Assembly: GCA_041662725.1 (NCBI GenBank)
Contig: JBAZRX010000001.1
Span: 85-64,084, forward strand
Source of the DNA: Minisyncoccota bacterium
Lineage (GTDB): Bacteria; Patescibacteriota; Minisyncoccia; Phycocordibacterales; PALSA-1337
Direction: 5' to 3'
DNA length: 64,000 nt
Each line of letters starts with the position of its first letter. Positions within the stretch are counted from its first letter, which is position 1. Positions 11,296-52,814 of the stretch are shown piece after piece. Position numbers and translations under genes: made by a program. The notes beneath the pieces were generated by a model. The model saw only the letters and a program-made list of their open reading frames with translations. It was not told where the DNA came from and ran no database searches.

Positions 11296-11307
11296 ATAAA
11301 CCCTATA

Positions 11308-17278: not shown

Positions 17279-17320
17279 ACCAACTTTTATGGAATTATTC
17301 CAAACGCACCAAAGCCTCTG

Positions 17321-18436: not shown

Positions 18437-18484
18437 TTAGTTTTAAGAAAAAAATTATTCATTAAGCTAGAAAAAGAACGTACA

Positions 18485-18509
18485 CCCCAGCTAAAGCTGG
18501 GGGTTTTCT
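18485..18509 (+). terminator. rho-independent terminator after cls
   Basis: CCCCAGC-TAAA-GCTGGGG then TTTTCT. Confidence 0.65.
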
Positions 18510-18511
18510 GG

Positions 18512-18550
18512 TTAAAAGAAAGAGCCTCCGCAAAAAAATTACGGAGGCTC
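18512..18550 (-). terminator. rho-independent terminator after ORF 18557..19267
   Basis: GAGCCTCCG-loop-CGGAGGCTC followed on the minus strand by a U-tract. Confidence 0.6.
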
Positions 18551-18556
18551 AAGTAA

Positions 18557-19267: not shown

Positions 19268-19320
19268 TTGCTGATTTACCGAGAACGCTCGGAACGTCTT
19301 ATCTCATTTAGTAAAATGAC

Positions 19321-19423
19321 CTACTGGGTCAGTTTGAGACGAGCCCTTTATTGCCAAAATTAGGCTCAAAAAGTTTACCCGTCCATAGCTTTATAGCAAA
19401 GAAGGGCTCGTCTCAATCAGTAG
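19321..19423. repeat. imperfect inverted repeat (~26-bp arms, 53-nt spacer) in the divergent region between the high-GC ORF and infC
   Basis: 'ctactgggtcagtttgagacgagccctt' versus 'aagggctcgtctcaatcagtag'. Confidence 0.6.
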
Positions 19424-19566
19424 ATTAACTTGCTAAATCAACAATGATTTTCTATCAAAGAACTACCATAATAGTATACACCTATTATCAGTATCTGTCA
19501 ATACCATTATTTCATTGTCAATTAACTATGAATATGCTATAAATAACCCTTGTAACATATAAGCCA

Positions 19567-20076
19567 TTGGCAATACGAGTCAAAATAAATCATCAAATTA
19601 AGGCGCCGGAATTGCGCGTCGTTACAGCCGAAGGAGAGAATCTCGGTGTAATAAGTCTTTCTGTGGCTCTAGCAGAGGCACAAAAGCGGGGGCTTGATCT
19701 TATTGAGATCTCCCCTACAGCAATACCACCAGTAGCCAAGATAATGGATTTTGGCAAATATCAGTACGATGAAAAGAAAAAGAATAAGATTGCTAAGAGT
19801 AAAACTCAGATGAGTGAGCTCAAGGTAGTCCAGATCAAGATAGGCACAGGAGACCATGATTTAGAACTAAAAGCTAAAAATATCTCCAAATGGCTTACTG
19901 AGGGTAATCGTGTAAAAGTAGATTTATTTCTTATCGGACGTGCTAAGTACATGGAAATGAAATTCTTGAAAGAACGTATGGACCGCGTCCTAAAACTTAT
20001 TACTATTGAATACAAGATTAGCCAAGAAGTAGTAAAAGGTCCAAAAGGTTTGAGTATGGTTATTGAAAAAAAGTAA
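19567..20076 (+). CDS. infC: translation initiation factor IF-3
   Basis: 169 aa. 'INHQIKAPELRVVTAEGENLGV...' matches the IF3 N- and C-domains. Reading frame starts on TTG (non-AUG start typical of infC autoregulation). Confidence 0.9.
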   Translation: MAIRVKINHQIKAPELRVVTAEGENLGVISLSVALAEAQKRGLDLIEISPTAIPPVAKIMDFGKYQYDEKKKNKIAKSKTQMSELKVVQIKIGTGDHDLELKAKNISKWLTEGNRVKVDLFLIGRAKYMEMKFLKERMDRVLKLITIEYKISQEVVKGPKGLSMVIEKK

Positions 20077-31334: not shown

Positions 31335-31350
31335 ATAATTCTTATGTGTT

Positions 31351-31404
31351 TATTCGTAGATTTGTATATTTGTAGCTCATTCGCATAATTCGTAAATTCG
31401 TAGT
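31351..31404. promoter_or_regulatory. ACGAAT-family motif B1 upstream of rpmC
   Basis: 'tattcgtagatttgtatatttgtagctcattcgcataattcgtaaattcgtagttt' shares the ~40-nt core with 44700..44746 and 52450..52488. Confidence 0.6.
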
Positions 31405-31830
31405 TTATATTCTAGCAACTATTCTTGATTTAACTGGTAATTTAGTTCCAGCCTTACGAAGTGCTTCACTAGCTATCTCCTGATCAACACCATCAATTTC
31501 AAACATAATACGACCTGGTTTAACTTCAGCGATAAAACCGACTGGATCACCTTTACCTTTACCCATCTTTACTTCAGCTGGCTTCTGAGTATAAGGATGA
31601 TCAGGAAAAATACGAACCCAGACTTTACCAGATTTTGTAGCATAACGTGCCATAACTTTACGTGCAGATTCAATCTGATTAGAAGTAATGCGGGCATAAT
31701 TAACAGCCTTCAATCCATATGAACCAAAAGATACTTTTATACCTCGTGTATCAGCATGAGCAGCCTCCTTGACCGGATGCATACGCATTGTGAACCACTT
31801 TCGATGTTTTACTTTTTTTGGAAATAACAT
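31405..31830 (-). CDS. rplP: 50S ribosomal protein L16
   Basis: 141 aa L16. Confidence 0.9.
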
Positions 31831-33473: not shown

Positions 33474-34325
33474 CTACACATTAACCTTTTTTTCAGTATT
33501 TACAAACATAGAAATCAGAGAGATAAGGAGGTAGATATACCAAGGAATATTAACACCAAAAATAATACCTAGAACAACGTCAATTATAATCGCTAACGTT
33601 ATAGCATATAAGCCTAATTTGAATGCCTGTCTATAAGTTACATCTATCTTACGTACCTTGTTTATTATCCAAAATATGAATGATCCAATCGTAATTGTTA
33701 ATAAATTCACAATAGTGTAAATAAAGAATAGGCCAGCGAAAAAGCCAACAATAATAAATGGAATCACTAATTTTATATATGGCTGTATCTTTGATATCTC
33801 TTCACCAAACTTAACTTTGTCTAATACCATATTAGGTACTGACTTCAAACTTTGAACAGATAGTTTCCCTTTATTGTTGTCTGGATAGACTAGATAATCT
33901 CTTGTAAGAAACGCAAACGTCTTATTATCATCAAATAATTCAGGTGTTAAAGAAGACTTCGTATCTATAACCAAGATATTTTCTGGAATTATTTCTTCCT
34001 CAGTTTTATTACTGAATTTATTAGACAATACTTCAGGAAGAGGAATATAGTATGGTTCTTGAACATTTGTTGATACCTGACCGTCCTGGAAAGTAATCTT
34101 TAATTCTTGTGGAAATGCATTAGTTAATATATCAAATGTTTCCTGAGAAAACACATTACTAATTATTGGAATAACTTGAAAGCATGCAACAATAGCTGTT
34201 ATTATCGTTACAAGTAGAATAAGTTTAAAAAAGTATTTAAATGCTTTTCCGAGACTAGTACTTTTCTGTTCAACATAGAAAGCTGGATTATAAACACTAT
34301 CTTTAATTGTTTTGAATATTGTCAT
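33474..34325 (-). CDS. hypothetical integral membrane protein (DUF1189-like?)
   Basis: 283 aa, N-terminal and C-terminal TM clusters around a soluble middle. Confidence 0.45.
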   Translation of the reverse strand: MTIFKTIKDSVYNPAFYVEQKSTSLGKAFKYFFKLILLVTIITAIVACFQVIPIISNVFSQETFDILTNAFPQELKITFQDGQVSTNVQEPYYIPLPEVLSNKFSNKTEEEIIPENILVIDTKSSLTPELFDDNKTFAFLTRDYLVYPDNNKGKLSVQSLKSVPNMVLDKVKFGEEISKIQPYIKLVIPFIIVGFFAGLFFIYTIVNLLTITIGSFIFWIINKVRKIDVTYRQAFKLGLYAITLAIIIDVVLGIIFGVNIPWYIYLLISLISMFVNTEKKVNV

Positions 34326-34424
34326 AAAAATGATTTATTTAAATAAAACCGACTGATTCGATTAAGACTAATTGTAAAACAAATTGATAATTTTAGCTAA
34401 TGATTGAATCATTACTTATGCGTT

Positions 34425-34729
34425 TAGAGCTTGGTAAATATGTTCTTTCATAACACTTGGTTGTAATTCAAATAATTGCACAATATGACAATTTAACAAT
34501 TAAGCTTGTTTCTAGCAAAACCCCACCACACTCATGTTCTAGAGCATTTCGCAGGCGTCGGGGAAATGTAATCCGCATACCTACGACACGACGCCGAGAA
34601 TAGACGGCCTTGCGAGTCTTTCGTTATTCGAGCAAGGCCGATCGTGCTCTAGAACATGAGTGTGGTGGGGTTTTGCTTAGAGATGGCGATCTTGCGAGTG
34701 TTATGAAAGAACATATTTACCAAGCTCTA
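34425..34729. repeat. 305-bp nested palindromic element (MITE-like or structured regulatory RNA/DNA)
   Basis: Outer perfect 33-bp IR (34425..34457 vs 34697..34729). Inner perfect 32-bp IR (34515..34546 vs 34645..34676). GC-rich core with further short IRs (ggccttgc/gcaaggcc). Contains an ACAATT-family arm at 34462..34505. Confidence 0.85.
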
Positions 34730-34740
34730 TACACGGTATT

Positions 34741-35577
34741 ATGATATTATTAGTTCATATGTTTTATGAACTATTTATTAATGGGTCACCTATTCTTAAT
34801 GGTAATGTTGTTGTCGTATTTACACTTATTTTCTCATTCTTAGCAATAATCTTAGCTCTTATTACCTATACTATTAGAAAGATAAAAGAAAATGAATCAC
34901 AAAAATATGAATTCATTACTATTATCGCTCACAAATTTCGCACACCGTTAACTTCAATAAAATGGCTTGCTTTGTCATTAATACAAAAAGAAACAGACCC
35001 TTATAAAAAACAAGACTTAGAAGATATCAACAAGTCCAATCAAAAACTCATAGATCTTACTGGAACTTTGATAGAATTGACCGAAAACGCTAATTCAAGC
35101 AAAGCTTCATATGTTTTTGAACGATTATCCTTATGTTCCCTAGTGCGTGATGTCTCCGATACATTTAAAGACTCTTTCCATAAGAAAAATATATTCTTTT
35201 CCGTCAGCTGTTCGGAGGAAATTTTTGTTAAAGCTGATAGACCAAGATTGGAATTTGTAATTCAAACTATTTTAGAAAATGCGCGCAATTATACATCTCC
35301 AGGCAAGAATGTTGATGTTTTTGTGTCTCGCTTACATCGCAGAGCTATTATCACTGTAGTAGATCATGGTATAGGCATAGACCAAAAAGATATTTCAAAG
35401 ATTTTTTCAAAATTCTATAGAACTCAAAATGCAAAATCTTTTGATACCGAAGGATTCGGTGTAGGTTTATACCTGGCAAAATCAATTATAAGACATCACC
35501 GAGGTAAAATAGAGATATTTTCTGAAGGAATAGATAAAGGCTCAACTTTCTCAATTGTCTTACCTAAAGTAAAATAA
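34741..35577 (+). CDS. sensor histidine kinase (orphan; no adjacent response regulator)
   Basis: 278 aa. One N-terminal TM, H-box 'IAHKFRTPLTSIKW', N/G1/G2 boxes 'ILENARNYT', 'DHGIGID', 'GFGVGLYLAKSII'. Confidence 0.8.
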   Translation: MILLVHMFYELFINGSPILNGNVVVVFTLIFSFLAIILALITYTIRKIKENESQKYEFITIIAHKFRTPLTSIKWLALSLIQKETDPYKKQDLEDINKSNQKLIDLTGTLIELTENANSSKASYVFERLSLCSLVRDVSDTFKDSFHKKNIFFSVSCSEEIFVKADRPRLEFVIQTILENARNYTSPGKNVDVFVSRLHRRAIITVVDHGIGIDQKDISKIFSKFYRTQNAKSFDTEGFGVGLYLAKSIIRHHRGKIEIFSEGIDKGSTFSIVLPKVK

Positions 35578-37769: not shown

Positions 37770-38282
37770 TCATTCTGTTGAATATTTCAATGCAAATACG
37801 ATTGCAGTTATCACTACGAATATACCTATACTATAAGTTAAATATGCCAAAGTATTTGTGTATGAAAGTAAATTCAGCTGTGAAAGCAAGTAATTCCAAT
37901 CATGCATTGAAGAATCCCCTCCTAGCAACGGTAATTGCTGAACTATGGCATCACCCATATAAACAGATACGTTTATTATATTGTACCCAACCCACAACAG
38001 GAGTAACGAGGCTGAAAAAAATTCTTTACGAAAAAAGAAGTAGTTTGCAAAAATAAGCGGAACAAATACTTGAAGAATAGACCCGCCAAGCATTTGTATA
38101 AATTCACCAAAAAATATAAAGATTGAATGACCGGCCTCATGAATAATGAGATCTACATTATCAATAAAATGCCAATCATTTAAATTTGAAATACAATTAA
38201 AAAAATATAACCCTAAAATTATCGTCATTATCAAACGGTAATAATTTATTTTCACTGAGTTGATATTTTTGTCATTACTCAT
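37770..38282 (-). CDS. hypothetical membrane protein with HEAGH (HExxH) motif – putative membrane metallopeptidase
   Basis: 170 aa, 4-5 TM; 'LIIHEAGHSIFIFFGE' within a hydrophobic context. Confidence 0.4.
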   Translation of the reverse strand: MSNDKNINSVKINYYRLIMTIILGLYFFNCISNLNDWHFIDNVDLIIHEAGHSIFIFFGEFIQMLGGSILQVFVPLIFANYFFFRKEFFSASLLLLWVGYNIINVSVYMGDAIVQQLPLLGGDSSMHDWNYLLSQLNLLSYTNTLAYLTYSIGIFVVITAIVFALKYSTE

Positions 38283-38309
38283 ATCTATATCTTAAAAACT
38301 ACTAGGTAT

Positions 38310-39551
38310 TTATTCATAACGAAGCGCTTCTATTGGACTTTTCTTTGAAGCTTGTCTAGCAGGATAACCACCAAATATAAGACCTATAAGAGCCGATACA
38401 GAAAGACCTAGAATTGCACCGTCCCAAGGAAAAACAAATGTCCAATTAACACCTAAACCTTTAGACAAAACTATAGCGGCTATAAGAGCTAGAGAAGCTC
38501 CTAAAATAATACCTATAATTCCACCTATAGCTGTAAGCATAACCGCTTCAAGAAGAAATTGGGTTAGAATATCTCTATCAGTAGCACCTAAGGCTTTGCG
38601 TAAACCTATCTCACGTGTACGCTCTGTTACAGCCACAAGCATAATATTCATAATACCTACACCGCCTACAAACAAAGCAATTGAAGCTACGGCCACAAGA
38701 AACCAAGTTAAAGCAGATGTAATAGTTCCAAGTCTATTAGCCAGATCTTCTTGAGTTTGAACATAAAAATCATCTTTAGAAGAATCGGTAATACCATGAG
38801 ATTCCCTAAGAGTCCTACGAACATCTTCAGCTGTAGACTGAACTTGGTTATCAGTTTTCGCCTGGATAATAAAATGATGATAATACTTAATACCAAGCAT
38901 GTAATTATTTGCTGTTGTGTAAGGAACAACCACTGCCTCATCAAAATTAAATAATGAACCACCACCACCCTTCTCTAAGACTCCTACAATTTTAAGATTA
39001 CGATTCTTTAATTTTATCTTCTGTCCTATTGGATTTTCACCATCAATAAATAAATGCTCAACTACTTTTGCACCTATAACTGCCACATCCGCACGAGAAG
39101 AGACGTCATCTAGAGCAAAGAAATCTCCTTCAGCTATTTTCGCATCGAATATATCAGCAAGAAGCTCCGTACCTCCAAAAATAGATACTTGATAAACTTC
39201 AGATTTATATGAGGCTGAATCAGCACCAGCAACAAGAGGCATAAGTACTTTCAGATCTGGAACATTAGTTAATTTCATGAGCTCTCTTATGTCTTTATCT
39301 TTAAGAGAATCACTAAACATCTGAGCAGAATCAGATGGTCCAGTAGGTTCTCTCCCAGGAGTAACTATTATTGTGTTTGTTCCTAATCCCTGTACTTGCC
39401 CAAGGATAAGCTCTTGTGCACCAGCTCCAATTGAAACAACCATCATAATAGCTGTGATACCGATCACAATGCCTAGAATCGTCAAAAATGATCTTGATCT
39501 ATTCGTAGTAAGTCCGGTTAATGCTGTTTTTATTGAGTGTTTCCAAGTCAT
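38310..39551 (-). CDS. ABC transporter permease (MacB/FtsX family)
   Basis: N-terminal TM, large extracytoplasmic domain, C-terminal FtsX 4-TM bundle. Listed ORF extends to 39620 and overlaps the ATPase gene; start placed at the internal 'MTWKHSIKTAL'. Confidence 0.8.
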   Translation of the reverse strand: MTWKHSIKTALTGLTTNRSRSFLTILGIVIGITAIMMVVSIGAGAQELILGQVQGLGTNTIIVTPGREPTGPSDSAQMFSDSLKDKDIRELMKLTNVPDLKVLMPLVAGADSASYKSEVYQVSIFGGTELLADIFDAKIAEGDFFALDDVSSRADVAVIGAKVVEHLFIDGENPIGQKIKLKNRNLKIVGVLEKGGGGSLFNFDEAVVVPYTTANNYMLGIKYYHHFIIQAKTDNQVQSTAEDVRRTLRESHGITDSSKDDFYVQTQEDLANRLGTITSALTWFLVAVASIALFVGGVGIMNIMLVAVTERTREIGLRKALGATDRDILTQFLLEAVMLTAIGGIIGIILGASLALIAAIVLSKGLGVNWTFVFPWDGAILGLSVSALIGLIFGGYPARQASKKSPIEALRYE

Positions 39552-39567
39552 AAAATAACAATTTGCC

Positions 39568-40284
39568 TTATTTAACAAATTCATCACTAGCTGTAAGTCT
39601 TTTTTTAACTTTCGTATCACTTTCTATCTCCCCATCCATGAGTCTAATAATACGCTCCGCATGTTCTGCAGTAGAAGTCTCATGAGTTATAAGGACGATG
39701 GTTTTTCCATGTTCTTCATTCAAATGCTGTATGATAGCCATAACATTTTTCCCTGACTTAGAATCAAGATTACCAGTAGGTTCATCAGCAAAGATTACTT
39801 CAGGGTCAGTAACTAATGCCCTAGCGATAGCTACACGTTGTTTCTCTCCACCAGAAAGTTCTGACGGTTGGTGGTACATCCTATGCTCCAAACCAACAGA
39901 TATAACTGCTTTGCGAGCTCTCTCTTCCCATTCATTTTCAGAAACTTTTGAGTAATACAGCGGTAATTTCACATTTTCAAGTACAGATGTGCGTGGTAAA
40001 AGATTAAACATTTGGAAAACAAAACCAATTTCACGGTTACGTAAATCGGCTAATTCATCACTAGTATATGTTGATACATTTTTTCCATTAAAAGTATAAC
40101 GCCCGCCAGTTGGAGTGTCTAAAAGACCAAGTAAATGCAGTAATGTTGATTTACCACTACCAGAAGGGCCCATAATAGCCAAAAACTCACCTTTACGGAC
40201 GGAAAAAGATACTTTATTTAAAGCAATAGTATCTATACCATCATCGTATGACTTTTTTAGGTTGTTTACATCTATTATGTTCAT
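39568..40284 (-). CDS. ABC transporter ATP-binding protein (MacB/LolD-type)
   Basis: Walker A 'GPSGSGKST', signature 'LSGGEKQRVAIARAL', Walker B 'IFADEPTGNLD'. Confidence 0.9.
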   Translation of the reverse strand: MNIIDVNNLKKSYDDGIDTIALNKVSFSVRKGEFLAIMGPSGSGKSTLLHLLGLLDTPTGGRYTFNGKNVSTYTSDELADLRNREIGFVFQMFNLLPRTSVLENVKLPLYYSKVSENEWEERARKAVISVGLEHRMYHQPSELSGGEKQRVAIARALVTDPEVIFADEPTGNLDSKSGKNVMAIIQHLNEEHGKTIVLITHETSTAEHAERIIRLMDGEIESDTKVKKRLTASDEFVK

Positions 40285-40289
40285 GAAAA

Positions 40290-40378
40290 TTTAACAATTA
40301 CACAATTAGACAATTTAACAATTGAGACGCCGTGCTTTAATTGTTCAATTGTGTAATTGTTAAATTGTAGAATTACTA
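40290..40378. repeat. ACAATT-family hairpin repeat A5
   Basis: 'aacaattacacaattagacaatttaacaattg' – loop 'agacgccgtgcttt' – 'aattgttcaattgtgtaattgttaaattg'. Confidence 0.8.
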
Positions 40379-41902
40379 TTTTACATACGTCACAATCTTA
40401 TCCCCTGCTCTCAATCCTGAAATAATTTCAACCATACCATCTGAACCTTTAAGACCAACTTCTACAGGTATTGATACAAAACTTTTACCATCAGATCCAA
40501 GAAGACGCACATTTTTTGTTCCAGAAACATCAATAATAGTTCTTGTAGGAACAGTAATCACGTTACTGCGTTCACGAGTCAGTATATCTAAGTTAGCGGT
40601 CATGCCAGAACGAATACGCTCATCTTTCTGTAAAAAATGTAAAGTAACTTTATAAGTAGGTACGCCTTCCAATATTGTTTCAGCCGGGTCCATAGTAACT
40701 GCTACTGCCGGAAAATCCACATTCTGACCATAAGCATCCAAAGTAGTAGAAGCATAATTACCAATAACAATCTTAGCAATATCAGCTTCTGGAACATAAG
40801 CTTCTATTTTATATACATCATCACTTTGAACTCCATACACAATCTTACCTGCCTGAACAAATTCACCCACACTAGGATCTGCACGAGTAATAATGCCGCT
40901 AATAGGAGAAACTATTCTATCTTTTTCATATTCTGCTTTATATGCTGCTACCAGAGCGGCTTGTGCCGCAATAGTTTGAGCAGATGACCCCGTCTTTCTT
41001 AAAATAAAATTGCTATCAGCTTGTTCATACGCTGACAAAGCATTTTCCAAACCAGTTTTCGCACTAGTAATTGAAGCTATAGCTTGATTCGTTAATGTAA
41101 GGCCTGAGTTTATTGATGAAACATAAGTATCAATAGTAGCCTGAGTTAAACCAGAATTACCTAGATTTAGATTATTAACAATAGTAGAAAGGCTACTCAT
41201 AAAATCTCTCACCACATTTACATACATATCTGCTTTTGAAATAAGAATATTTATATTATCTGTTGATGTTACAGCATCAATATCTGCTTTCCACTTAACT
41301 AAAGTTTCAGCTACTGAAATACGTGACATGTTAATTGTATTTTTTTCAGTTTGAGACTGAGTACGTACTTTTATTTCAGGGTTAGCACTTTGAGGACTAT
41401 CAAATAATGAATCGGCATAGTTTGTAATAGCACTTTGTGCCTGTACATAAGCCGTTCTAGAAGCATCAAAAGCTTCTTGTTTAGCATTCGCAAGAGAAAC
41501 TTTAGCTGTATTAACCTTTGATTGTTCCACTGCAAGTTCTTGTGAATTCAGATTGCGAGATAAATCATCCAACTTAGCTTGTGCTGAAGCAAGATTAGCA
41601 GCATCACCAGAACTGTTAAGCCCAGCAATCAGCGAACCTTTTTCTATTTTATCCCCAACTTTGACATTAATAGTTTTAATAATTCCACCTTTTTCAAAAG
41701 CCAAATCCGCCTTACCAACTGGAGATATTTTACCAGTAACACTAACTTTTTCTGTAATATTACCAACAGTAGCTACAGCGAATTCTATATTAACAGCAGG
41801 ATTTCTATTATAAAAAATAAATACTAGTACAATCGCAAGTATTACTACAAAAATAAAAACATATTTGTTTTTAATATAATGCTTAAAAAAAGATCTTTTC
41901 AT
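40376..41902 (-). CDS. efflux periplasmic adaptor (HlyD/MacA-like) protein
   Basis: N-terminal TM, long coiled-coil region, beta-barrel/lipoyl-like C-terminus. Listed ORF extends to 41962 across a GC-rich palindrome; start placed at 'MKRSFFKHY'. Confidence 0.65.
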   Translation of the reverse strand: MKRSFFKHYIKNKYVFIFVVILAIVLVFIFYNRNPAVNIEFAVATVGNITEKVSVTGKISPVGKADLAFEKGGIIKTINVKVGDKIEKGSLIAGLNSSGDAANLASAQAKLDDLSRNLNSQELAVEQSKVNTAKVSLANAKQEAFDASRTAYVQAQSAITNYADSLFDSPQSANPEIKVRTQSQTEKNTINMSRISVAETLVKWKADIDAVTSTDNINILISKADMYVNVVRDFMSSLSTIVNNLNLGNSGLTQATIDTYVSSINSGLTLTNQAIASITSAKTGLENALSAYEQADSNFILRKTGSSAQTIAAQAALVAAYKAEYEKDRIVSPISGIITRADPSVGEFVQAGKIVYGVQSDDVYKIEAYVPEADIAKIVIGNYASTTLDAYGQNVDFPAVAVTMDPAETILEGVPTYKVTLHFLQKDERIRSGMTANLDILTRERSNVITVPTRTIIDVSGTKNVRLLGSDGKSFVSIPVEVGLKGSDGMVEIISGLRAGDKIVTYVK

Positions 41903-41918
41903 AAACAAATACATTGTA

Positions 41919-41952
41919 CCACGAGGCCTCGCCTCGAGGCGAGGCCTCGTGG
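41919..41952. promoter_or_regulatory. perfect 34-bp GC-rich palindrome upstream of the efflux operon
   Basis: 'ccacgaggcctcgcctcgaggcgaggcctcgtgg' is its own reverse complement; stark GC contrast with the surroundings. Confidence 0.7.
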
Positions 41953-42035
41953 AAATCGCCATAAAAAGTCTTAAGCAAACAAATATCCGTAGATTTTCTT
42001 AAGTAAAGCAGACAAAAACAAACTAGATATTAAGA

Positions 42036-42166: not shown

Positions 42167-42772
42167 TTAACCCACTATCTCCACAAGCGTTCCCCTTCTT
42201 CCAGGAATAGCTCCTGAAACGTATAAAACACTTTCTTCAGCATCAATGTGAGCAACTTTAAGATTGGTAACGGTAATACGATCACTACCCATACGTCCTG
42301 CCATACGCATACCTACCGGAACATGTGTACGTAAGCCACCACCGATAGAACCTGCTTCACGTTCAGAGTGTTTCTGACCATGAGAACGAGGTCCTCCTCC
42401 GAAACCATGACGTTTTACAACACCCTGAAAACCTTTACCTTTGGAAACTGCTGTAACCATTACAGTATCACCTGGTTTGAACTGTGATATTTCTATCTTA
42501 TCTCCAACTTTAAGCGTAGGACTTTCAACACGAAATTCCTTAACTGAAGCAAATGATCCTAATTCCTTGAAATGACCTTTTTGTGGTTTATTTATACGAT
42601 TTGGATTACGAGAACCCTCGCCTATCTGTACAGCTTCATAACCATCTGTGTCTTTGGTGCGAACTTGTGTAACGACATTTCCACGTATAACTACTGCTGT
42701 AACTGGAATAGCAACACCAGAGGCATCGTATATTTGTGTCATATTCAGTTTTCTTCCTAGAATAAATTTCAT
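42167..42772 (-). CDS. rplC: 50S ribosomal protein L3
   Basis: 201 aa L3 consensus. Confidence 0.9.
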   Translation of the reverse strand: MKFILGRKLNMTQIYDASGVAIPVTAVVIRGNVVTQVRTKDTDGYEAVQIGEGSRNPNRINKPQKGHFKELGSFASVKEFRVESPTLKVGDKIEISQFKPGDTVMVTAVSKGKGFQGVVKRHGFGGGPRSHGQKHSEREAGSIGGGLRTHVPVGMRMAGRMGSDRITVTNLKVAHIDAEESVLYVSGAIPGRRGTLVEIVG

Positions 42773-42785: not shown

Positions 42786-43172
42786 TTACATCATCTTTAC
42801 ATCAATGTTAACTCCTGATGGCAAGCTAAGGTTAGTTAACGCTTCAATAACTTTTGGATTCGGATTAATAATATCAATCAAACGCTTGTGAACTCTCATT
42901 TCAAACTGCTCACGAGAATTCTTATCAATAAAAGACGCGCGATTTACGGTGTATTTCTTGATTTCCGTTGGCAAAGGTACTGGACCATGGATCTCAGCAT
43001 CATAACGAGCCGCTGTATCCATAATCTGTTTCAATGAAGCATCTAAAATCTTATGCTCATAAGCACGTACGCGAATGCGTAGATGTTGAACCTCGCCAGC
43101 AATCTTAGCTTTTTTAATTCTAGGATGTTTGACTGATTTAGACTCTTTTTTAATTGTTTCTTTTGTTGCCAT
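42786..43172 (-). CDS. rpsJ: 30S ribosomal protein S10 (with ~25-aa K-rich N-terminal extension)
   Basis: 'HLRIRVRAYEHKILDAS...' S10 core. Confidence 0.9.
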   Translation of the reverse strand: MATKETIKKESKSVKHPRIKKAKIAGEVQHLRIRVRAYEHKILDASLKQIMDTAARYDAEIHGPVPLPTEIKKYTVNRASFIDKNSREQFEMRVHKRLIDIINPNPKVIEALTNLSLPSGVNIDVKMM

Positions 43173-43269: not shown

Positions 43270-44457
43270 CTACGCGATCACTTTTGTTACAACACCAGCA
43301 CCCACAGTCTTTCCTCCTTCACGAACAGCAAATCTCTGTTTATCTTCAAGAGCAACTGGAGCAACGAGCTTTACTTTGAAAGTAATAGTATCTCCTGGCA
43401 TAACCATCTCAACCTTTTCAGGAAGAGTTACTTCACCAGTAACATCAGTAGTACGAATATAAAACTGAGGCTTATAACCTGTAAAGAATGGAGTGTGACG
43501 ACCACCTTCTTCCTTCTTCAAAACGTAAACTTCTGACTCAAATTCTGTATGAGGTTTGACAGACCCTGTCTTGGCAAGAACCTGACCTCTTGAAACATCA
43601 TCTTTAGCTGTACCACGAAGAAGAACTCCGGCGTTATCTCCAGCCATTCCCTCTTTGAGAGATTTATTAAACATTTCAATACCTGTAACAGTAGTCTTGG
43701 TTGTATCCTTGAAACCTACAATTTCAACTTCCTCACCAACCTTGATCATACCGCGTTCAATACGACCAGTAACCACAGTTCCACGACCTTCAATAGAGAA
43801 GATATCCTCAATAGGCATAAGGAAAGGCTTATCAACCTCACGAACTGGAGCTGGAATATAAGTATCAAGTGCGTTCATGAGCTCATCAATCTTTGTTGAC
43901 CATGTAGCATCACCATTCAAAGCATTTGAGGCTGAACCACGAATAATAGGAACATTTTTACCATCAAACTTGTTCTTCGTAAGAAGTTCGCGAACTTCCT
44001 CTTCAACAAGATCAATAAGATCTGTCTCAGGAACGAGATCACACTTGTTCAAGAAGACTACAATCTTTGGAACACCCACTTGGTAAGCCAAAAGAACGTG
44101 CTCACGTGTTTGTGGCATAACACCATCAGTTGCAGAAACGACGAGAATAGCTCCGTCCATTTGAGCGGCACCTGTAATCATGTTCTTAATAAAGTCGGCG
44201 TGTCCTGGACAGTCAATGTGAGCATAGTGACGAGTAGGAGTTTCGTACTCTACGTGAGACAAAGAAATTGTAACTGTCTTTGTAGCATCACGAACAGTAC
44301 CACCCTTTGTGATATCAGCGTATGCTTTAACATTTGCTAAACCTTTCTTGGATTGAACGGCCAAGATAGCTGCTGTCAAAGTAGACTTCCCGTGGTCAAT
44401 GTGACCAATGGTTCCAACGTTGATATGCGGCTTGTTGCGATTAAATTCTGCTGCCAT
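43270..44457 (-). CDS. tuf: elongation factor Tu
   Basis: 395 aa; 'GHIDHGKST', 'DCPGHADF', 'NKCD' GTPase motifs. Confidence 0.95.
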
Positions 44458-44635
44458 GTGATTATTGATTTAGTGCCCTGATTTTTTGGATCTTATCGTT
44501 AACGGTTGTGTGCAAACGCTAGCGATAGAGATCCAAAAAAAAGGGATAAATTATTAATAGTTAATAAATAATAATGAACTAAAGACTAACAAAACGCAGG
44601 GTCTGCGCTTGTATCATAAGATAGCATAACGCAAT

Positions 44636-44746
44636 AAAATTCGCAAATTTTTTTCTACGAATCTACGAATATGCGAATGAAACACAGCATCTGCGATTAT
44701 TCGTAGATTCGTAGCCCATTCGCATAATTCGTAGATTCGTAGTTTA
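44636..44746. promoter_or_regulatory. ACGAAT-family hairpin B2 (upstream of tuf, immediately downstream of the giant gene)
   Basis: Left arm 'ctacgaatctacgaatatgcgaatg', right arm 'cattcgcataattcgtagattcgtag'; 8-bp ctACGAAT units. Confidence 0.75.
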
Positions 44747-47700
44747 CTTAGCAAAATATTCTCCTAAAGAATCCCAAACTGAAGCTCTTCCACTAGTACT
44801 ATTATTTACAGAAGTTGGTGCTGAATTAGGGGTTGGTGTAGGAGTTGGTGTAGGTTTTATTAAATTATAATATTCTGCTGTATTCATCAGAACGCCTTTT
44901 ATATAACTAATATCATAACCAGAATTTACCCAGTAATCTAAACCAGCTTGATCTGGATTACGTTTAAGTAAAGTTACGTACAACTGAGTTATATCATTAA
45001 TTCTTGCTTGTTTTGGAGAAATTGTTGATGTTGGGGTTGGGGTTAAAGTTGGTGTAGGTGTTGGTGAATAATACGGTTTTGTTGTTGGTGAAGGAGAAGG
45101 AGTAATTACTGAAGATTGTGCCTTCACAGTTGTTGTTTGACTTGAAACTATTGATGAAACAGGAATAACCGCAACAGCCTGTGAACCATCGGTGAATTTA
45201 ACTATAAGTTTACCGCCATACCATGTTGTTATTGACTCTTTTTGACCATAGAGCATATAGACTTGAGAACTATATGATGCTTGACCAAGAGGCAAAACGT
45301 CATAATACTTATCATTAAATTGAGTACTTGAGCCCTGTATAACAATAACAAGTGGATATGGCTTTCTACCATAAGAATCAAGTTCGGCACTTGTTGACCA
45401 CGCTTCACCATTATTATCACTCAAAACAGTTATTGATTTTATACTTTTTCCACCAGCACTATTGATTTTCATTTCCATACGCCATCCCCAATCAGATGGA
45501 TCTTTACTTATATACCCACGTCCAGAACTAAATTGATCCCAAGCACCAGCACGATCTTCATTGGCGCTATACACAACAGCTTTAATAGTGCCATCAAATG
45601 TAGGGTAATTCGATGACGGTGTTTGTGTAGGGGTAGGATTTAAAGAAACAGCAGAAGTTTTAATTGTAGACTGTGTTACTTTTGCATATGTTGGTGGAAG
45701 ACTAAGCTTCTCTTCGTCTGATGCTATAACTGTTTTACCATCTTTTACTGAAAGAAGTTCGGCCTTAGCAACAACAGTTTGGACAACACTGGTATTATTT
45801 TTAAATATCACATCAATAAAACCGTCAGGAGCAACTTTATTTTTTACACCACAAGCAAGACCGCCGTTTACATTAGTTGGAGCTGAAGCGACAACACCTG
45901 TAGGACAGACGATTGAAAGAATCCAATCAAACTCATCAACTTGACTGTTTGTAGAATAACGTACACGAATACCTTCATTAGTTCCGATTATTTTTGAAGA
46001 AAGAGTAAAAACAGAAGAAGAAACTGGGGCTGTAATAGAAGATTGTGCCGAATTAGAAACTTTAACTTTTATAGTATTACTTTTTATAGCTTCATTTTTA
46101 GCATTTAAGGACATTAAATATAAATTGTAATCACCATCAACAATAGAAGTAGTTGGCTCATTCCACCAACCATCTGGATGCACGCCACGACCTATTGTGC
46201 TAGGAATTGTAAAACTGAGTTTAGAACCATCGTATAGTGAATATCCTGTTAATGTACGAACATCATGAGAATACCCCACTGACCATGTTTTTGAGCCATC
46301 AACTGTTGTAAGAATAATATTTCCTGTTCTACCAGCACCTGTTGCATAAATTGTTAATAAAGATCCTACTGAAACAGGCTGAGGTGCAACTCGGCTTATT
46401 TCTGGTTGTACTCCACTTACTGGAGGAATAATACTAAAAAAATCATTACTATCATCACAAATATCTGTTCCTGCTTTACATACCCTTGCCTTATATTGAC
46501 CAACAGAAATTTGACTAGGATACGTAGAAAATCCGAGTGACTGTGCATTTTTATTTGATGGTTTTAAATTTAACTGGATAGGACTTGGTATAACTTGACC
46601 AGATGAATTTAGTAACTTTACATCAACTGATTGGGTAGGATCTATGGAATCCCATATAACACTCAATGATTCGCCCTGTGCTATTTTTTCTCCTCCATTA
46701 GGTGAAACAATAACAACACTACCCCTATTAGGAGCTGGAACGTCAACTTTAGCCTTAACCGCTTTTGCATTACATGATGCATTTATTTTTTTTAAAGTAA
46801 AAGGTCCAGCAACGCCAGTTGAAGGAACTCCGATTGATGTTTGAAATGCTTTTACTGCGGCTTTGGTATCAGAACCAAAATATCCCTTCAGAGCATTACC
46901 TAAAGAAATACTCGGAATATCAAAACCGTTATTGATCAACCATGTTTGCAAAGCTACGACTTCTGATCCAGAACTACCTACAGAAAGGCCAGAGTTTTCT
47001 AAAGCAAAGATAGCTGAGAAGTTGTAACACAAACTTATTCCTGAAGAAGCTTTGAATTTAGAGTTAGTTGAATCAACTGAACTATCCGCCACAGTACACA
47101 CATATCCGGTAGGACATCCTTCAGGTTGAACAGCTAGAGGTGTACAAACATAACCTTCAGGACATGAAAAAGGAAGTGTACAAATATATCCAACAGGACA
47201 TAAAACAGAAGATTGCTCTAGTGCATCCCCTACAGCGGCAACAAGTCTTGTATCTCTTGGTACAAGACTAACTGGACTAGAACTCGGCATTGGTGTTGGA
47301 GAAGATGAAGATGTTGGAGAAGTTGAAGGAGTCGGTGTAGGAGATGGAGTTGAAGAAGGTGTAGGAGATGGAGTTGGAGTAATAATCGGTGTTGGGGTAG
47401 GAGTAGAAGCTGGAGATGGCGTTGGTGTTGAAGAAGGAGCTACTGAAGGAGTCGGCGAAGAATAATAACTTGAAGTTGGAGATGGTGAAGGTGTATATGT
47501 TGGTGAGTAAGTAGATGTTGGGGAAGGAGTATATGTTGGGGAATAAGAAGAAGTTGGTATAGGAGTAGAAGTTGGTCTAGGTGTATATGTTGGTGAGTAA
47601 GTAGAAGTCGGAACAGGAGTTGCTGAAGATACTGGTCTAGGAGTAGCTGAGTAAGCAGGAATTGGAGTTGTTGCTGGAACATAAGCAGGACTTGGAGAGA

Positions 47701-49063
47701 TAGAACGCATACACCTATCACCTATCTTAGTGTAACCAGGAGGACAAGATGCTGGTGAAGGTGAAGCTGCTGGTGCTGATGAATACGTAGGAGCAGAAGA
47801 AACCGCTGGAGTAGCTTGTGGTGTACTAACTGGTAACGTTGTTGGTGAAGAGCCTGTAATTAACGAAGTGGCAAATCTTAAAGCGCTTGAGTATGTATTA
47901 CGTATTCTTCCGAAGAAACCAGTTGATGCTGCTGGAGTTGGGGCTGGGGTGGAAACTACTGGACGATTCAATGTAGTAAAAACACCTTCTCTTGTTAACA
48001 CACCAGACCAAGTATAGAAATTATCTAAACCAGTAGTTTGATTAGTAACAGTTTTTCCCCCTACAGTGTAATCAATATCCTTAACTGCCATAAGCAAGTT
48101 AAGGGAAGGATTGTTTGGAGTGAAAGGAAGTGCTTGGTTTGATGATACCTGACCATTCAAAACAACTGTATATGTACCACCATCCCCGATAGTTGCATCA
48201 GACGGAGTCACATATATATTCATAATACTTGCTGTGTATGCATTCTGTTTGTTCCCTGCTGTCGATGTTACATAGGCACCATTTGTCTGTGTTGATGATG
48301 CAAATACAAGAGTGAAGTCTTTAAGGGTAGGTTTAACCATCACTCCTCCAACTGCTTTAGCTTTAAGAGTAATAGTTCCGAATAGAGAGCTTGAGGCTAC
48401 ATCTTTTACACCTGGTGCTGAAAAAATATCAGCACTTACGAATGACCAGTCGACGCGAGGATATGTTGTATTTGACAAAGTACTATTACAAAGACCATTT
48501 CTAGGATAATCAAGACTTAATTCCTTTGTATTTGTCTTAAAATCCATTAAATCTCTAATTTCAACTCTAGCCACCCTTCCACCAACGTTAAAAGTAATAT
48601 CTCTAATTGCCATAAAGAGATTTTGGGCTGAACAAATATCAGGATTATTAGACATAACAGCACCGTAAATTGTTACTGTGTATTCTTCTCCATCATTAAT
48701 CGTAGGTTTATTTGGTGTAACAACAATAGATCTGATGACCCCAGAATAGATAGAATTTGAAGAATCAATACGTTTAAAAGGTTTGTATATTTCCGTACTG
48801 GAAGCAAAAATTAAACTAAAATCGCTAGCCTTTGGCTTAACTATCGTTCCTCCAACCGCTTTAACTTTAAGAGTAATAGTTCCGGTTAGAGAGCTTGAAG
48901 CTACATCTTTTACACCTGGTGTTGAAGCAATATCGGAACTTACGAAGGACCAAGAGGCACGAGGAGAGGTAGCCTGCGCCTCAACTTTCGTTATTTCACC
49001 AGAGAAAACCGCAAACGATAATACTGTTAGCGAAATAAAGAAAGAAAATAATATTTTTTTCAT
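44744..49063 (-). CDS. giant secreted multidomain protein (PT-rich linkers, PG_binding_1-like and DUF4214-like domains)
   Basis: 1439 aa. Signal peptide. Tandem duplicated ~55-aa module ([36 protein letters not shown] / [37 protein letters not shown]). '[12 protein letters not shown]' repeats. Three 'CPxGYxCT' repeats. '[16 protein letters not shown]...[14 protein letters not shown]...GVAGPFT' peptidoglycan-binding-like. C-terminal '[22 protein letters not shown]' DUF4214-like. Confidence 0.8.
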
Positions 49064-49204
49064 AATTTAAAATAGAGACTAATAATAATTGATAATAATT
49101 TTGATATAAAAAAACAAGTTATAGCATCCGAGATATTTCGGATACTTAGCTAACCAACATAATAACACCATATCTTTATAAAGAACATAGGATAATGTTG
49201 TGGG

Positions 49205-49240
49205 TAATACAAAAAGAACCTGTGTAAAACAAGTTCTTTT
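49205..49240 (-). terminator. rho-independent terminator after fusA
   Basis: Minus-strand 'AAGAAC-ttgttttacacag-GTTCTT' followed by a U-run. Confidence 0.55.
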
Positions 49241-49275
49241 TGTATTTATATTTTTACTTACTAAATAAAACTTTA

Positions 49276-51420
49276 TTACTTCCTTTTTTCTATTATCTCT
49301 TGAGCCACATTACTTGGTACAACATCATAATGATCAAATTCCATCATGGCACTTCCTTGACCTGAAGTCATAGAACGAAGTTGGGTTGTATAACCGAACA
49401 TCTCTGACAGTGGAACTTTAGCAATAATAGAAATAACTTGGCCTTTTGGTTGACTACCTTCAATCTGACCACGCTTGGAAGCGATAGAACCATTGATATC
49501 ACCCATATATTTCTCTGGAGCCACAACTTCAAGTTTCATTATAGGTTCCAGAATAACAGGTTTAGCACGCTTAGCGGCATCTTGGAAAGCTTGAGAAGCG
49601 GCAATCTTGTAGGCAATTTCAGAAGAGTCAACATCGTGGTATGAACCGAATGTGAGTTCACAAGAAACATTAACCATCTTATAACCAGCTACAATACCGC
49701 GATCCATGGCTTCATGGACACCCTTTTCAACCGCAGGAATAAATTCATTTGGAATTACACCACCTTTGATTGAGTTTATAAACTCAAAATCATCATAGCG
49801 TTTGACATATTTAGGAATCTTTTCCCCTTCTGGCCATGGTTCCATCGGCTTAAGAGTTAGACGAACGTGACCATATTGACCTTTACCACCAGTCTGCTTG
49901 ATATATTTATGTTCAGCTTCAGCAGTACTCTGAATAGTCTCACGATATGCTACTTGTGGTTCACCAACATTAGCTTCCACGCTAAATTCTCGCTTCATAC
50001 GATCAACCATGATTTCCAAATGAAGTTCGCCCATTCCAGAAATAATAGTTTCTCCAGTTTCTTGATTGGATGAAACTCTAAAGGTTGGATCTTCGTTACC
50101 AAGTTTATGAAGTGCTATACCCATTTTTTCTTGATCAGCTTTAGTCTTTGGTTCAATACGCAAAGAAACGACCGGCTCCATAAATTTGATAGTTTCTAGA
50201 ACGATAGGATTTTTTTCATCACAGAAAGTATTGGAAGTAAGAGCATCTTTCAGACCTACCGCAGCGGCGATTTCTCCGGAAAAGACTTTCTTTACTTCTT
50301 CACGGGCATCAGCTTGCAAACGCACAATACGGCCTAAACGCTCTCTTTTTCCAGTAGATGAATTGTAAATATATGTTCCAGCTTCAATAGTTCCTGAATA
50401 AACTCTAAAGAATGTTAATTGTCCAACGAATGGATCGTTCTGTAACTTGAAAGCAAGGGCACAGAAAGGTTCTTCATCTGAAGGATGGCGAAGAATTTCT
50501 TCTCCTGTATTTGGGTCAATACCTTTGACAGCTTCAATATCTAGAGGAGATGGTAAATAATCAACAACCGCATCAAGAATCAATTGAATTCCAACGTTTT
50601 TCAAAGCTGAACCAGTGAAAACTGGAAATATTTCATTTTTAATAACAGCTACACGAGCAATCTTTTTCAAAACATCAACAGAAATTTCTTTACCTTCTAA
50701 ATATTGTTGCATAGCCGTATCATCATGTTCAACTATCTTTTCTACCAACTCTGCATGATACTTCTTGGCATCTTCCAAAAGTTCAGCTGGAATTTCTTTT
50801 TCAACAATATTAACTCCTTTTTCTCCTTCAAAATAATAAGCTTTCATGCGCATAAGATCTACAACACCTACATGGTCACCCTCTGTTCCTATAGGGATTT
50901 GGAATCTAACTGCGCGCTTATTTAATCTTTCAACAATAGATTTGAATGATTTTTCAAAAGAAGCACCCATACGATCCATTTTGTTGATAAAACAAAGACG
51001 TGGCACTTTACTTTCATCAGCGTAACGCCAATTTGTTTCTGATTGAGGTTCTACGCCAGCCACACCGTCAAATACCACAACGGCACCATCTAGAACACGT
51101 AGAGAACGTTTCACTTCCACTGTAAAATCGATGTGTCCTGGAGTATCTATAACGTTAAAACGAGTCTTTTTGGAAAGATCTGTTTTTGGCATATAAGTTG
51201 GATTCCAGAAACAAGTAATGGCCGCAGCTGTAATAGTAATGCCACGCTCCCTTTCCTGTTCCATCCAGTCTGTAGTGGTCTCACCTTCGTGAACTTCTCC
51301 AATTTTATGGATCATTCCAGTATAAAATAGAATACGTTCTGACGTAGTTGTCTTGCCCGCATCAATGTGAGCAATAACTCCAAAGTTTCTAACTTGTGCT
51401 AATGGATAATCGCGATTCAT
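49276..51420 (-). CDS. fusA: elongation factor G
   Basis: 714 aa; 'AHIDAGKTT', 'DTPGHIDF', domain IV/V consensus. Confidence 0.95.
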   Translation of the reverse strand: MNRDYPLAQVRNFGVIAHIDAGKTTTSERILFYTGMIHKIGEVHEGETTTDWMEQERERGITITAAAITCFWNPTYMPKTDLSKKTRFNVIDTPGHIDFTVEVKRSLRVLDGAVVVFDGVAGVEPQSETNWRYADESKVPRLCFINKMDRMGASFEKSFKSIVERLNKRAVRFQIPIGTEGDHVGVVDLMRMKAYYFEGEKGVNIVEKEIPAELLEDAKKYHAELVEKIVEHDDTAMQQYLEGKEISVDVLKKIARVAVIKNEIFPVFTGSALKNVGIQLILDAVVDYLPSPLDIEAVKGIDPNTGEEILRHPSDEEPFCALAFKLQNDPFVGQLTFFRVYSGTIEAGTYIYNSSTGKRERLGRIVRLQADAREEVKKVFSGEIAAAVGLKDALTSNTFCDEKNPIVLETIKFMEPVVSLRIEPKTKADQEKMGIALHKLGNEDPTFRVSSNQETGETIISGMGELHLEIMVDRMKREFSVEANVGEPQVAYRETIQSTAEAEHKYIKQTGGKGQYGHVRLTLKPMEPWPEGEKIPKYVKRYDDFEFINSIKGGVIPNEFIPAVEKGVHEAMDRGIVAGYKMVNVSCELTFGSYHDVDSSEIAYKIAASQAFQDAAKRAKPVILEPIMKLEVVAPEKYMGDINGSIASKRGQIEGSQPKGQVISIIAKVPLSEMFGYTTQLRSMTSGQGSAMMEFDHYDVVPSNVAQEIIEKRK

Positions 51421-51461: not shown

Positions 51462-51932
51462 TTACCATGCAAAGTGTGCAAAAGCTTTGTTAGCTTCAGC
51501 CATCTTGTGGACATTCTCGCGTTTCTTAACAGCTTCACCTTCATTTTTGGAAGCAGAAATAATTTCATCGGCTAATTTCATATATATCGGAGCTCCCTTT
51601 TTAGAACGGGCGGCTTCAATAATCCACTTCATAGATAAAGCTTGTTTGCGTTCTGGACGGACTTCACGAGGAACCTGGTAGTTTGCTCCACCCACACGAC
51701 GTGAGCGTACTTCCATAGCAGGAGAGGTATTTTTCAAAGCCGCTTCAAATACTTCTAATGGATTCTCTACTTTGGCCTTTTCTTTAATAGCATTCATACA
51801 ATCTGCAACAATGCCACGTGCGATATTCTTCTTACCAGACTCCATAATGTAATTTGTAAACTTGGATAGCTTCAAAGAACTGTAGGTAATATCTGGCTTT
51901 AAATCTCTTTTTATGTTTAGTTTTCTTCTCAT
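51462..51932 (-). CDS. rpsG: 30S ribosomal protein S7
   Basis: 156 aa S7. Confidence 0.9.
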   Translation of the reverse strand: MRRKLNIKRDLKPDITYSSLKLSKFTNYIMESGKKNIARGIVADCMNAIKEKAKVENPLEVFEAALKNTSPAMEVRSRRVGGANYQVPREVRPERKQALSMKWIIEAARSKKGAPIYMKLADEIISASKNEGEAVKKRENVHKMAEANKAFAHFAW

Positions 51933-51943: not shown

Positions 51944-52360
51944 TTATTTAGCAGCTTTCGGCCTTTTATTACCATATTGACTACGACCTTTTCTCCTTGC
52001 TTCAACACCTGCACAGTCCAAAACTCCACGAACAATAGAATAACGTAATCCTACATCCTTAACACGACCTCCACGAAGAAGGACTACTGCGTGTTCTTGC
52101 AAGTTATGACCCATTCCTGGAACATAAGCTGTTACTTCCATACCATTAGTAAGTCTTACACGGGCAATCTTACGAATAGCCGAGTTAGGTTTCTTTGGAG
52201 TTTTTGTAGTAACTTTAGTGCAAACTCCGCGTTTAAATGGAGCCGGAAAGAATATTGGACGATTTTTGATCGTATTGAAAGTACGAGTCAAAGCTATAGA
52301 TTTAGATTTTCTCTTAAAAAGTTTTCGATTCTTTTTGGTTAATTGATTGATTGTTGGCAT
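51944..52360 (-). CDS. rpsL: 30S ribosomal protein S12
   Basis: '[19 protein letters not shown]...' S12. Confidence 0.9.
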
Positions 52361-52380
52361 ATTTTAATAATATTTTTTAT

Positions 52381-52488
52381 AACGAATCTACAAATTATGC
52401 GAATGACTACAAATCTACAAATATTTGCAAACATTATGTTTCATTTGCATATTCGTAGCCCATTCGCATAATTCGTTAATTCGTAGTT
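52381..52488. promoter_or_regulatory. ACGAAT-family hairpin B3 upstream of rpsL (likely str-operon promoter region)
   Basis: 'acgaatctacaaattatgcgaatg' ... 'cattcgcataattcgttaattcgtag'. Core 'attcgtagcccattcgcataattcgt' identical to B2. Confidence 0.75.
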
Positions 52489-52814
52489 GGCAATTATGAA
52501 TTCTTCACCGTTTTTGGTTTGAGTATGTCTTTCAACTTAGCCTTGCAATCTAGGCCTTGTTATAGACAAATACCATAACGATTACTCATTTTTGCCTTAA
52601 TAAATGTACAATCTCTAATGAAAGAGACAGTGGGGGTACAGTAACATAAAAGAAATCATGGTGCAATGAATCGCAAGAATCTATTTTATCAAAATGGTAA
52701 AAAAGATTGGTGACGCTTATTTACAAGGTTTTAATTTTGCCATGAATGAATCATAAGCCTATGCTGTTATTAAATTTGATGTAGATTTCCAACACTAACC
52801 AGAACCAATTAACA

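Follow-up and report, generated by a model that had tools for sequence, protein, structure and literature searches.

Is the very large gene that separates fusA from tuf in a Minisyncoccota bacterium a foreign insertion into a conserved gene cluster, or is it native to its place? The question arises from a 64,000-nucleotide stretch of contig JBAZRX010000001.1 (assembly GCA_041662725.1, positions 85 to 64,084 of the forward strand), called here the window, in which a single open reading frame (ORF) for a protein of 1439 residues, the giant gene (44744-49063, minus strand), lies between fusA and tuf. A preliminary description of this DNA regarded the order rpsL-rpsG-fusA-tuf as universally conserved and the gene as an unusual and possibly recent insertion. 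Comparison with related genomes leads to a different answer: the giant gene is probably an ancestral, fusA-linked and fast-evolving gene for a secreted, peptidoglycan-binding surface protein, located at an open operon boundary, and not a recent insertion.

The interval between fusA and tuf

All genes of the locus lie on the minus strand and were assigned with Pfam. The rpsL (51944-52360) and rpsG (51462-51932) genes are followed by fusA (49276-51420), the final gene of the rpsL-rpsG-fusA unit, which encodes the 714-residue elongation factor EF-G with the domains GTP_EFTU, EFG_III, EFG_IV and EFG_C. Then come a terminator-like hairpin, the giant gene, which is open throughout, and tuf (43270-44457; EF-Tu, 395 residues), with rpsJ (42786-43172) and rplC (42167-42772) tightly behind. 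The gene order is interrupted here, as had been described: the gap between fusA and tuf measures 4818 bp and the giant gene is the only gene inside it.

The view that this order is universal does not survive comparison with relatives. A set of 80 loci was retrieved with EF-G from species-representative genomes, all of them metagenome-assembled genomes (MAGs) of Paceibacteria or Parcubacteria type, with fusA 59-89% identical. The median distance from fusA to tuf is 1400 bp (range 108-9252); the gap exceeds 500 bp in 83% of 52 relatives and exceeds 3 kb in 13 of the 52, and a further 13 loci contain no tuf within more than 3 kb 3' of fusA. The rpsG-fusA and rpsJ-rplC junctions have medians of 181 and 169 bp and are wider than 500 bp in 30% and 28% of cases, respectively; the rpsL-rpsG, tuf-rpsJ, rplC-rplD, rplD-rplW and rplW-rplB junctions all have medians below 30 bp, and at most 2% exceed 500 bp. 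Given these gap sizes, interruption between fusA and tuf is the rule in Paceibacteria, and within the cluster this interval stands out as the principal place of gene gain.

What the gap contains differs from genome to genome and includes large signal-peptide proteins, toxin-antitoxin pairs, an ABC exporter and housekeeping genes. Signal-peptide proteins of at least 300 residues are enriched there (19 of 43, compared with 32 of 203; p = 1e-4), as are PG_binding_1 proteins (8 of 159, compared with 3 of 829; p = 4e-5), although these p-values are indicative only, as the signal-peptide rule is crude and the loci are phylogenetically non-independent. Clear toxin-antitoxin pairs occur in the gap of L004, L014, L046 and L090, the last of the MNT/HepT type. 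In six loci with fusA 60-62% identical (L068, L072, L075, L076, L077 and L079) the first ORF 3' of fusA encodes 81-136 residues and has an N-terminal sequence ...ENG.P..VV...EE(Y/F), which resembles Phd/YefM-type antitoxins. The junction on the other side of fusA, that with rpsG, is open in L034 (3750-9782), L036, L003, L087 (1351-2439) and L090 (1639-2755), with gaps of up to 7.4 kb. The one in L034 holds a signal-peptide protein of 2010 residues, and an ORF6N-domain gene is common to this junction in L087 and L090.

Nine homologues of the giant protein, found by searches with single domains, were looked up for gene position, which had played no part in their selection. Seven of the nine adjoin fusA or tuf: P0002, P0032, P0005, P0153, P0155, P0156 and P0030. 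The arrangement 3' of fusA varies among them. P0002 is a protein of 875 residues separated from fusA (85% identical) by two small genes (L081), and P0032, of 1489 residues, follows fusA (85%) and a gene for 377 residues (L082/83). P0005 belongs to a row of three genes (376, 939 and 247 residues) between fusA (90%) and tuf (L084). The gene for P0153, of 642 residues, lies between an MNT-HepT toxin-antitoxin pair and tuf (L090/91; fusA 83%, tuf 90%), and that for P0155 belongs to a locus (L092) in which fusA (84%) is followed by genes for 396 and 639 residues and by tuf. P0030 is found where fusA (84%) is followed by a gene for 857 residues and tyrS (L094). The P0156 locus (L093), where fusA is not in view, reads more than 1971 residues, 321 residues, 764 residues, an M23 peptidase and tuf. 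A scan of metagenomes added L087 (fusA 83%), with proteins of 1058, 236 and 478 residues between fusA and tuf, two of which contain PG_binding_1.

Homologous secreted peptidoglycan-binding genes thus occupy the site in L081, L082/83, L084, L087, L090/91, L092 and L094, in which fusA is 83-90% identical, and giant homologues are found there in every informative relative whose fusA is 83% identical or more, L045 excepted. Signal-peptide proteins stand directly 3' of fusA in 11 of the 11 informative genomes with fusA at least 80% identical, among them L045, L003 and L002. In L081, L082 and L094 the family gene stays with fusA while tuf lies elsewhere, so that it is the end of the rpsL-rpsG-fusA unit to which the family is linked.

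The best homologue, P0153, is encoded in the fusA-tuf interval, and its sequence runs collinear with the core of the giant protein. The cysteine motifs and the PG_binding_1 domain are 41% identical in the two proteins, the pair of immunoglobulin (Ig)-like domains that follows is 68% identical over 215 residues, and the two C-termini agree in their final 12 residues. The giant protein is longer than P0153 in two places, by about 600 residues from the signal peptide to the cysteine motifs and by about 400 ahead of the tail; because of these additions it is regarded as a longer version of the same family, which, judged by the two proteins, arose most simply by domain accretion with both ends conserved. 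Of the 2550 ORFs of the window and all loci, 10 have a tail motif like [IVL]W[DQN][AS][IVL]..EYF among their last 30 residues, in each case a large gene 3' of fusA, and none has it in the interior. Eight related genomes carry a gene with this tail at the site.

Nucleotide alignment with the closest relatives gives 74-78% for the flanks; within the gap, only 91 nt of the peptidoglycan-binding region are similar. The gene consequently evolves much faster than its neighbours, and its orthology rests on the collinearity of the proteins and the tail motif, as the gap has almost no nucleotide similarity. In close relatives the locus contains from one to three genes, encoding 247 to 1489 residues.

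The composition of the giant gene, which had been proposed as a check for foreign origin, proved to be native. Its guanine-plus-cytosine (GC) content is 0.382, that of third codon positions (GC3) 0.176, and its codon-usage distance to the rest of the window, 0.55, is among the lowest there; the genome has about 36% GC. By contrast, a 236-residue ORF at 18557-19267 (minus strand) has a GC of 0.557, a GC3 of 0.70 and a distance of 2.75. This ORF, located between a PLD-family gene and infC and without a Pfam or Rfam match, looks foreign and recently acquired. No direct repeats flanking the giant gene were found, and the fusA-tuf interval has no tRNA gene in or beside it and no integrase or other mobility gene. 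Since the composition is native, repeats are lacking and homologues occur at the same site, the insertion proposed in the preliminary description is not supported; the synteny comparison found instead the homologous secreted genes with their shared tail, and such presence in relatives is what that description had itself named as the sign of an ancestral gene.

Architecture of the encoded protein

The 1439-residue ORF is judged to be a genuine gene and not a chance reading frame, in view of the score of its PG_binding_1 domain, the homologues of several of its domains and the presence of an identical protein in NCBI and JGI, annotated as a 'peptidoglycan-binding protein' of a Candidatus Paceibacterota MAG. 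A homology search with the whole protein returned only itself and single-domain matches among the matches listed. The predicted mature protein has a mass of 148 kDa and an isoelectric point (pI) of 8.8, and the protein contains 16 cysteines. The features described as a signal peptide and a composition rich in proline and threonine are both recovered. The former, read from the sequence, is a predicted Sec signal peptide of residues 1-29 (48977-49063, minus strand, as are all segments below) with a predicted cleavage site VEA|Q. Beyond residue 40 there is no hydrophobic segment and thus no candidate for a membrane anchor.

The N-terminal part of the predicted mature protein consists of two tandem Ig-like β-sandwich domains of about 150 residues each (residues 31-200 and 201-372; 47948-48973), which belong to no Pfam family. 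The family of this N-terminal domain is scarce, with 148 representatives among 1.84 billion proteins, and PG_binding_1 is also present in 8 of 10 tested proteins that contain it. Ig-like folds were predicted by modelling for two regions of the protein. A stalk rich in proline, serine and threonine follows (residues 373-610; 47234-47947), built of degenerate repeats with an 18-nt period; residues 373-600 are 24.6% Pro, 23.7% Ser and 19.3% Thr.

Three CPxGYxC cysteine motifs, at residues 622, 634 and 650 (46994-47233), lead into the peptidoglycan-binding domain and are common to the giant protein, P0002, P0004, P0005, P0032 and P0153. The PG_binding_1 domain (PF01471) comprises residues 691-765 (46769-46993); the match covers residues 698-760 and the full model (1-57) and scores 50.8 bits against a cut-off of 23 (E = 1.9e-13). 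Its closest sequence match in the PDB is 1lbu_A (E = 4.7e-5), with 6tci, 7rum and 4fet matching the same 70 residues more weakly; these relatives are a D-Ala-D-Ala carboxypeptidase, spore cortex-lytic enzymes and an endolysin. The only string similar to an LPXTG sortase signal in the protein is VPSTG at residue 746, within PG_binding_1, so that such a signal is absent.

C-terminal to the anchor is the conserved core pair of Ig-like domains (residues 766-1015; 46019-46768), the first Kre9/KNH-like and the second IPT/TIG-like, which gives generic matches to IPT/TIG, macroglobulin and fn3. Two domains without a Pfam family come next (residues 1016-1140 and 1150-1312; 45128-46018), the second of them common to the giant protein, L005 and P0005. 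Residues 1345-1405 (44849-45031) form a candidate DUF4214 domain (PF13946): the whole protein scores 20.7 bits, under the cut-off of 23.2, and the isolated segment 24.8 bits with only 23 residues matched. This segment is 44% identical to the corresponding region of P0032. The protein ends with the tail of the family (residues 1424-1439; 44747-44794), and this conserved C-terminal segment may form an amphipathic helix. Neither the CPxGYxC motifs nor the IWDAIxEYF tail matches a Pfam family. When eight separate segments of the protein were searched against Pfam at E = 1, no catalytic domain was detected, only marginal Ig-like hints.

Transcription, proposed role and rival explanations

The terminator behind fusA, which had been placed at 49205-49240, corresponds to a terminator-like hairpin at 49206-49246 (minus strand) with an 18-bp stem followed by UUUUUGU (-22 kcal/mol, z = -5.8), and an equivalent hairpin with a U-run occurs 3' of fusA in most of the 13 close relatives checked. 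A consensus scan gave a weak σ70-like promoter match, TTTATA-17-TATTAT, at 49082-49110 (minus strand), 19 nt 5' of the start of the giant ORF, with 9 of 12 positions matching; in this region such matches are not commoner than in shuffled sequence. On the other side of the gene, the hairpin of ACGAAT repeats that had been described before tuf is present (44655-44742, minus strand; -47.3 kcal/mol, z = -9.4). It does not stand alone, as three separate structures, and not one, lie between the giant ORF and tuf. A canonical GC-rich terminator-like hairpin (AAGCGCAGACCCUGCGUUU, then a U-rich tail) is found about 45 nt beyond it at 44582-44610, and a long hairpin at 44476-44545 lies just 5' of the tuf start (-31.3 kcal/mol, z = -7.4), both on the minus strand. 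With terminator-like hairpins on both sides, insulation of the giant gene from fusA is plausible.

The ACGAAT hairpin is a repeated, genome-specific intergenic element. The element is about 45 nt long, ACTACGAAT(C/T)TACGAATTATGCGAATG(G/A)GCTACGAAT, and has three copies on the minus strand, all intergenic and within ribosomal-protein clusters: just 5' of rpsL (52375-52490), 3' of the giant gene (44640-44743) and 5' of a small ORF behind rplP (31340-31405). Two of the copies fold as long, highly stable hairpins (-46 and -47 kcal/mol; z about -9), and the heptamer TACGAAT occurs 27 times, compared with 9.4 expected. None of the 80 related loci contains the element, and when the complete window was searched against Rfam, none of its intergenic regions matched an RNA family, those with the ACGAAT and pre-tuf hairpins included.

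The preferred explanation combines these features as follows. The protein would be exported by the Sec pathway, and PG_binding_1 would attach it non-covalently to the peptidoglycan of the same cell, with chains of Ig-like β-sandwiches reaching out from both sides of this central anchor. On the N-terminal side, the duplicated Ig-like domains would form the tip of the Pro/Ser/Thr stalk, a flexible segment of about 230 residues; on the C-terminal side, the conserved Ig pair would be followed by the two further domains, the candidate DUF4214 and the short conserved terminal segment. The protein is likely an adhesin or a structural part of the envelope of a Paceibacteria cell that probably lives attached to a host, a role that is favoured because no catalytic domain was detected. 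Its family, which would be defined by the signal peptide, the CPxGYxC motifs, PG_binding_1, the Kre9/TIG-like Ig pair and an IWDAIxEYF-type tail, would be a lineage-specific set of orthologues that goes back, at its place directly 3' of fusA, to the ancestor shared by all genomes of a clade in which fusA is at least about 83% identical. Its fast change would come from domains being gained, lost or shuffled and from genes being split, with growth to 1439 residues in the present genome, and the turnover of modules would reflect diversifying pressure at the cell surface. Transcription would be separate, fusA having its own terminator and tuf starting another unit. As the site is an operon boundary, genes could be added there without breaking up the packed ribosomal-protein genes, and the permissiveness of this boundary would make fusA-tuf the main gene-gain site across Paceibacteria.

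Several observations weigh against this explanation, in addition to the reserve with which the enrichment values are to be read. L045 is, with fusA 89% identical, among the two closest relatives, and yet it has other secreted proteins 3' of fusA and no tuf within 10 kb. Two members of the family, P0056 and P0012, do not adjoin fusA, and the sample is non-random, as several loci were chosen for resemblance to the giant protein, though not for position. The weak promoter evidence leaves room for read-through from fusA. The signal peptide and the wall binding are both predictions, and the approximately 300 residues from 1016 to 1312, which have no fold assignment, could conceal an activity. L045 is peculiar in a further respect: at 9668-19668, fusA and two secreted proteins are followed by what appears to be rpsH-rplF-rplR-rpsE-rplO-secY (the names derive from ORF order and N-terminal sequences), the stretch that begins with tuf and comprises the cluster's first half is missing within 10 kb, and the cluster is either rearranged or mis-assembled.

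A recent horizontal event, in which a 4.3-kb island has newly landed between fusA and tuf, would explain why the gap has no nucleotide similarity to any relative while its flanks align at 74-78%, why no full-length homologue was found in 5.8 billion protein clusters, among the matches listed, and why the contents of the junction vary between genomes. It is nevertheless very unlikely. The native composition and codon usage do not agree with it, nor does the absence from the interval of flanking repeats, a tRNA gene or any other gene, including an integrase, and what largely refutes it is that collinear homologues ending in the family's tail motif occupy this site in eight related genomes. Still less weight, indeed next to none, is given to an artefact, be it a chimeric assembly or a frame open by chance. 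That the exact protein is recorded from one contig only was not counted as support, and the same arrangement in independent assemblies from other samples (L084, L087, L090/91 and L092), together with several significant domain matches in the ORF, contradicts it.

The remaining alternatives accept the gene as native and assign a different function to its product. As a major surface-layer (S-layer) or envelope-lattice protein it would be abundant and self-assembling, and the neighbourhood of translation genes, beside which the gene has kept its position, would serve its high expression. The large size, the predicted secretion and wall anchoring, the Ig-like arrays and a divergence between relatives as fast as is usual for S-layer genes all fit such a protein. 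However, the Ig matches are generic, and many cysteines and a basic pI, here 16 and 8.8, are atypical of bacterial S-layer proteins; a lattice protein would also be expected to be more uniform than a locus of one to three genes for 247-1489 residues. On balance an S-layer function is unlikely. A cell-wall-remodelling enzyme, with catalysis residing in an unassigned domain, is suggested by the fact that PG_binding_1 often directs hydrolases to peptidoglycan, by the enzymatic nature of its PDB relatives (carboxypeptidase, cortex-lytic enzyme, endolysin) and by the roughly 300 residues lacking a fold assignment. Yet no catalytic Pfam family emerged from the separate segments even at E = 1, both modelled regions are predicted to be Ig-like, and in relatives the same modules are paired with PKD, TIG, fn3 and Kre9-like domains and not with hydrolase domains, which makes this function highly improbable.

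A bolder form of the preferred explanation can also be formulated. According to it, the locus 3' of fusA encodes the principal, rapidly diversifying surface protein of the clade, either a determinant of host attachment or an envelope layer; the signal peptide and the IWDAIxEYF segment together constitute an undescribed lineage-specific export or anchoring signal; and expression is tied to that of the translation genes by partial read-through of the fusA terminator. In this full form the proposal is speculative and rather doubtful.

Relation to known systems and to the rest of the window

The str-S10 cluster of the window is interrupted in two more places. Between rplC and rplD (37770-41962, minus strand) lie genes for an HlyD-type adaptor, an ABC ATPase, a MacB/FtsX permease and a 170-residue protein of unknown function. 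This gap exceeds 500 bp in 1 of 46 relatives, the two genes being contiguous in L087 and L090, and is rarer than the fusA-tuf event. Behind rplB (33474-35577), a histidine kinase gene on the opposite strand (34741-35577) and a gene for a DUF1189 protein (33474-34325) precede rplV-rpsC-rplP; in L090, rpsS is found directly behind rplB. Two features outside the cluster may be mentioned. An α-2-macroglobulin homologue of 1661 residues (1019-6004, minus strand) contains a Hint/PT-HINT (intein-like) domain at residues 810-937, between the bait-region and A2M domains. A predicted tRNA-Ile (11221-11295, minus strand) has a TAT anticodon (UAU in the RNA) and is not the usual CAT-encoded, lysidine-modified form.

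The giant protein shares a module and predicted export with secreted PG_binding_1 proteins such as the Zn D-Ala-D-Ala carboxypeptidase of Streptomyces albus (1lbu) and the SleB-type cortex-lytic enzymes. Unlike these enzymes, it has no detected catalytic partner, and the module is located midway in a 1439-residue array of Ig-like domains. It is similar to the modular Ig adhesins of bacteria, which carry arrays of Big, TIG, PKD or fn3 domains on stalks rich in Pro and Thr and include wall-associated proteins of Gram-positive species, in its signal peptide, low-complexity stalk and Ig-like repeats, in the quick shuffling of domains between relatives and in the predicted attachment to the wall. 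It differs from them in having neither LPXTG nor a C-terminal membrane anchor, attachment being predicted to be non-covalent through PG_binding_1, and in possessing the lineage-specific IWDAIxEYF tail and CPxGYxC motifs.

The str operon of E. coli, rpsL-rpsG-fusA-tufA, is co-transcribed. The window has the same four genes in the same order and orientation but, unlike E. coli, a terminator-like hairpin and a 4.8-kb gap behind fusA. Bacterial chromosomes are known to have hotspots of gene gain in intervals between conserved core genes, and the fusA-tuf interval resembles them in taking most of the turnover while the neighbouring intervals are closed. It departs from the usual hotspot in being situated within the str-S10 cluster and in holding, in one clade, a vertically inherited, diversifying family and not mobile elements. 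A search of the literature on str genes and peptidoglycan-binding surface proteins of Parcubacteria, the candidate phyla radiation or Patescibacteria found no description of the locus or of the family with its conserved tail. By its predicted domains, the giant protein is an enlarged member of a broad class of PG_binding_1 multi-Ig surface proteins, and its domain types are ordinary. What is new is a variable locus within the str-S10 cluster of a whole class, which holds an inherited, diversifying surface-protein gene.

This cluster is often taken as rigid in binning, phylogeny and the validation of contigs; in Paceibacteria it contains one very open and two partly open junctions. Cultivated bacteria of the candidate phyla radiation live attached to other microbes, and to our knowledge almost nothing is known about the proteins that mediate this contact in Paceibacteria. 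Fast-evolving, predicted to be anchored to the wall and encoded at a fixed address, the family of the giant protein is a practical candidate for studies of host specificity, and primers in the flanking fusA and tuf genes could be used to survey strain-level variation of the cell surface in metagenomes.

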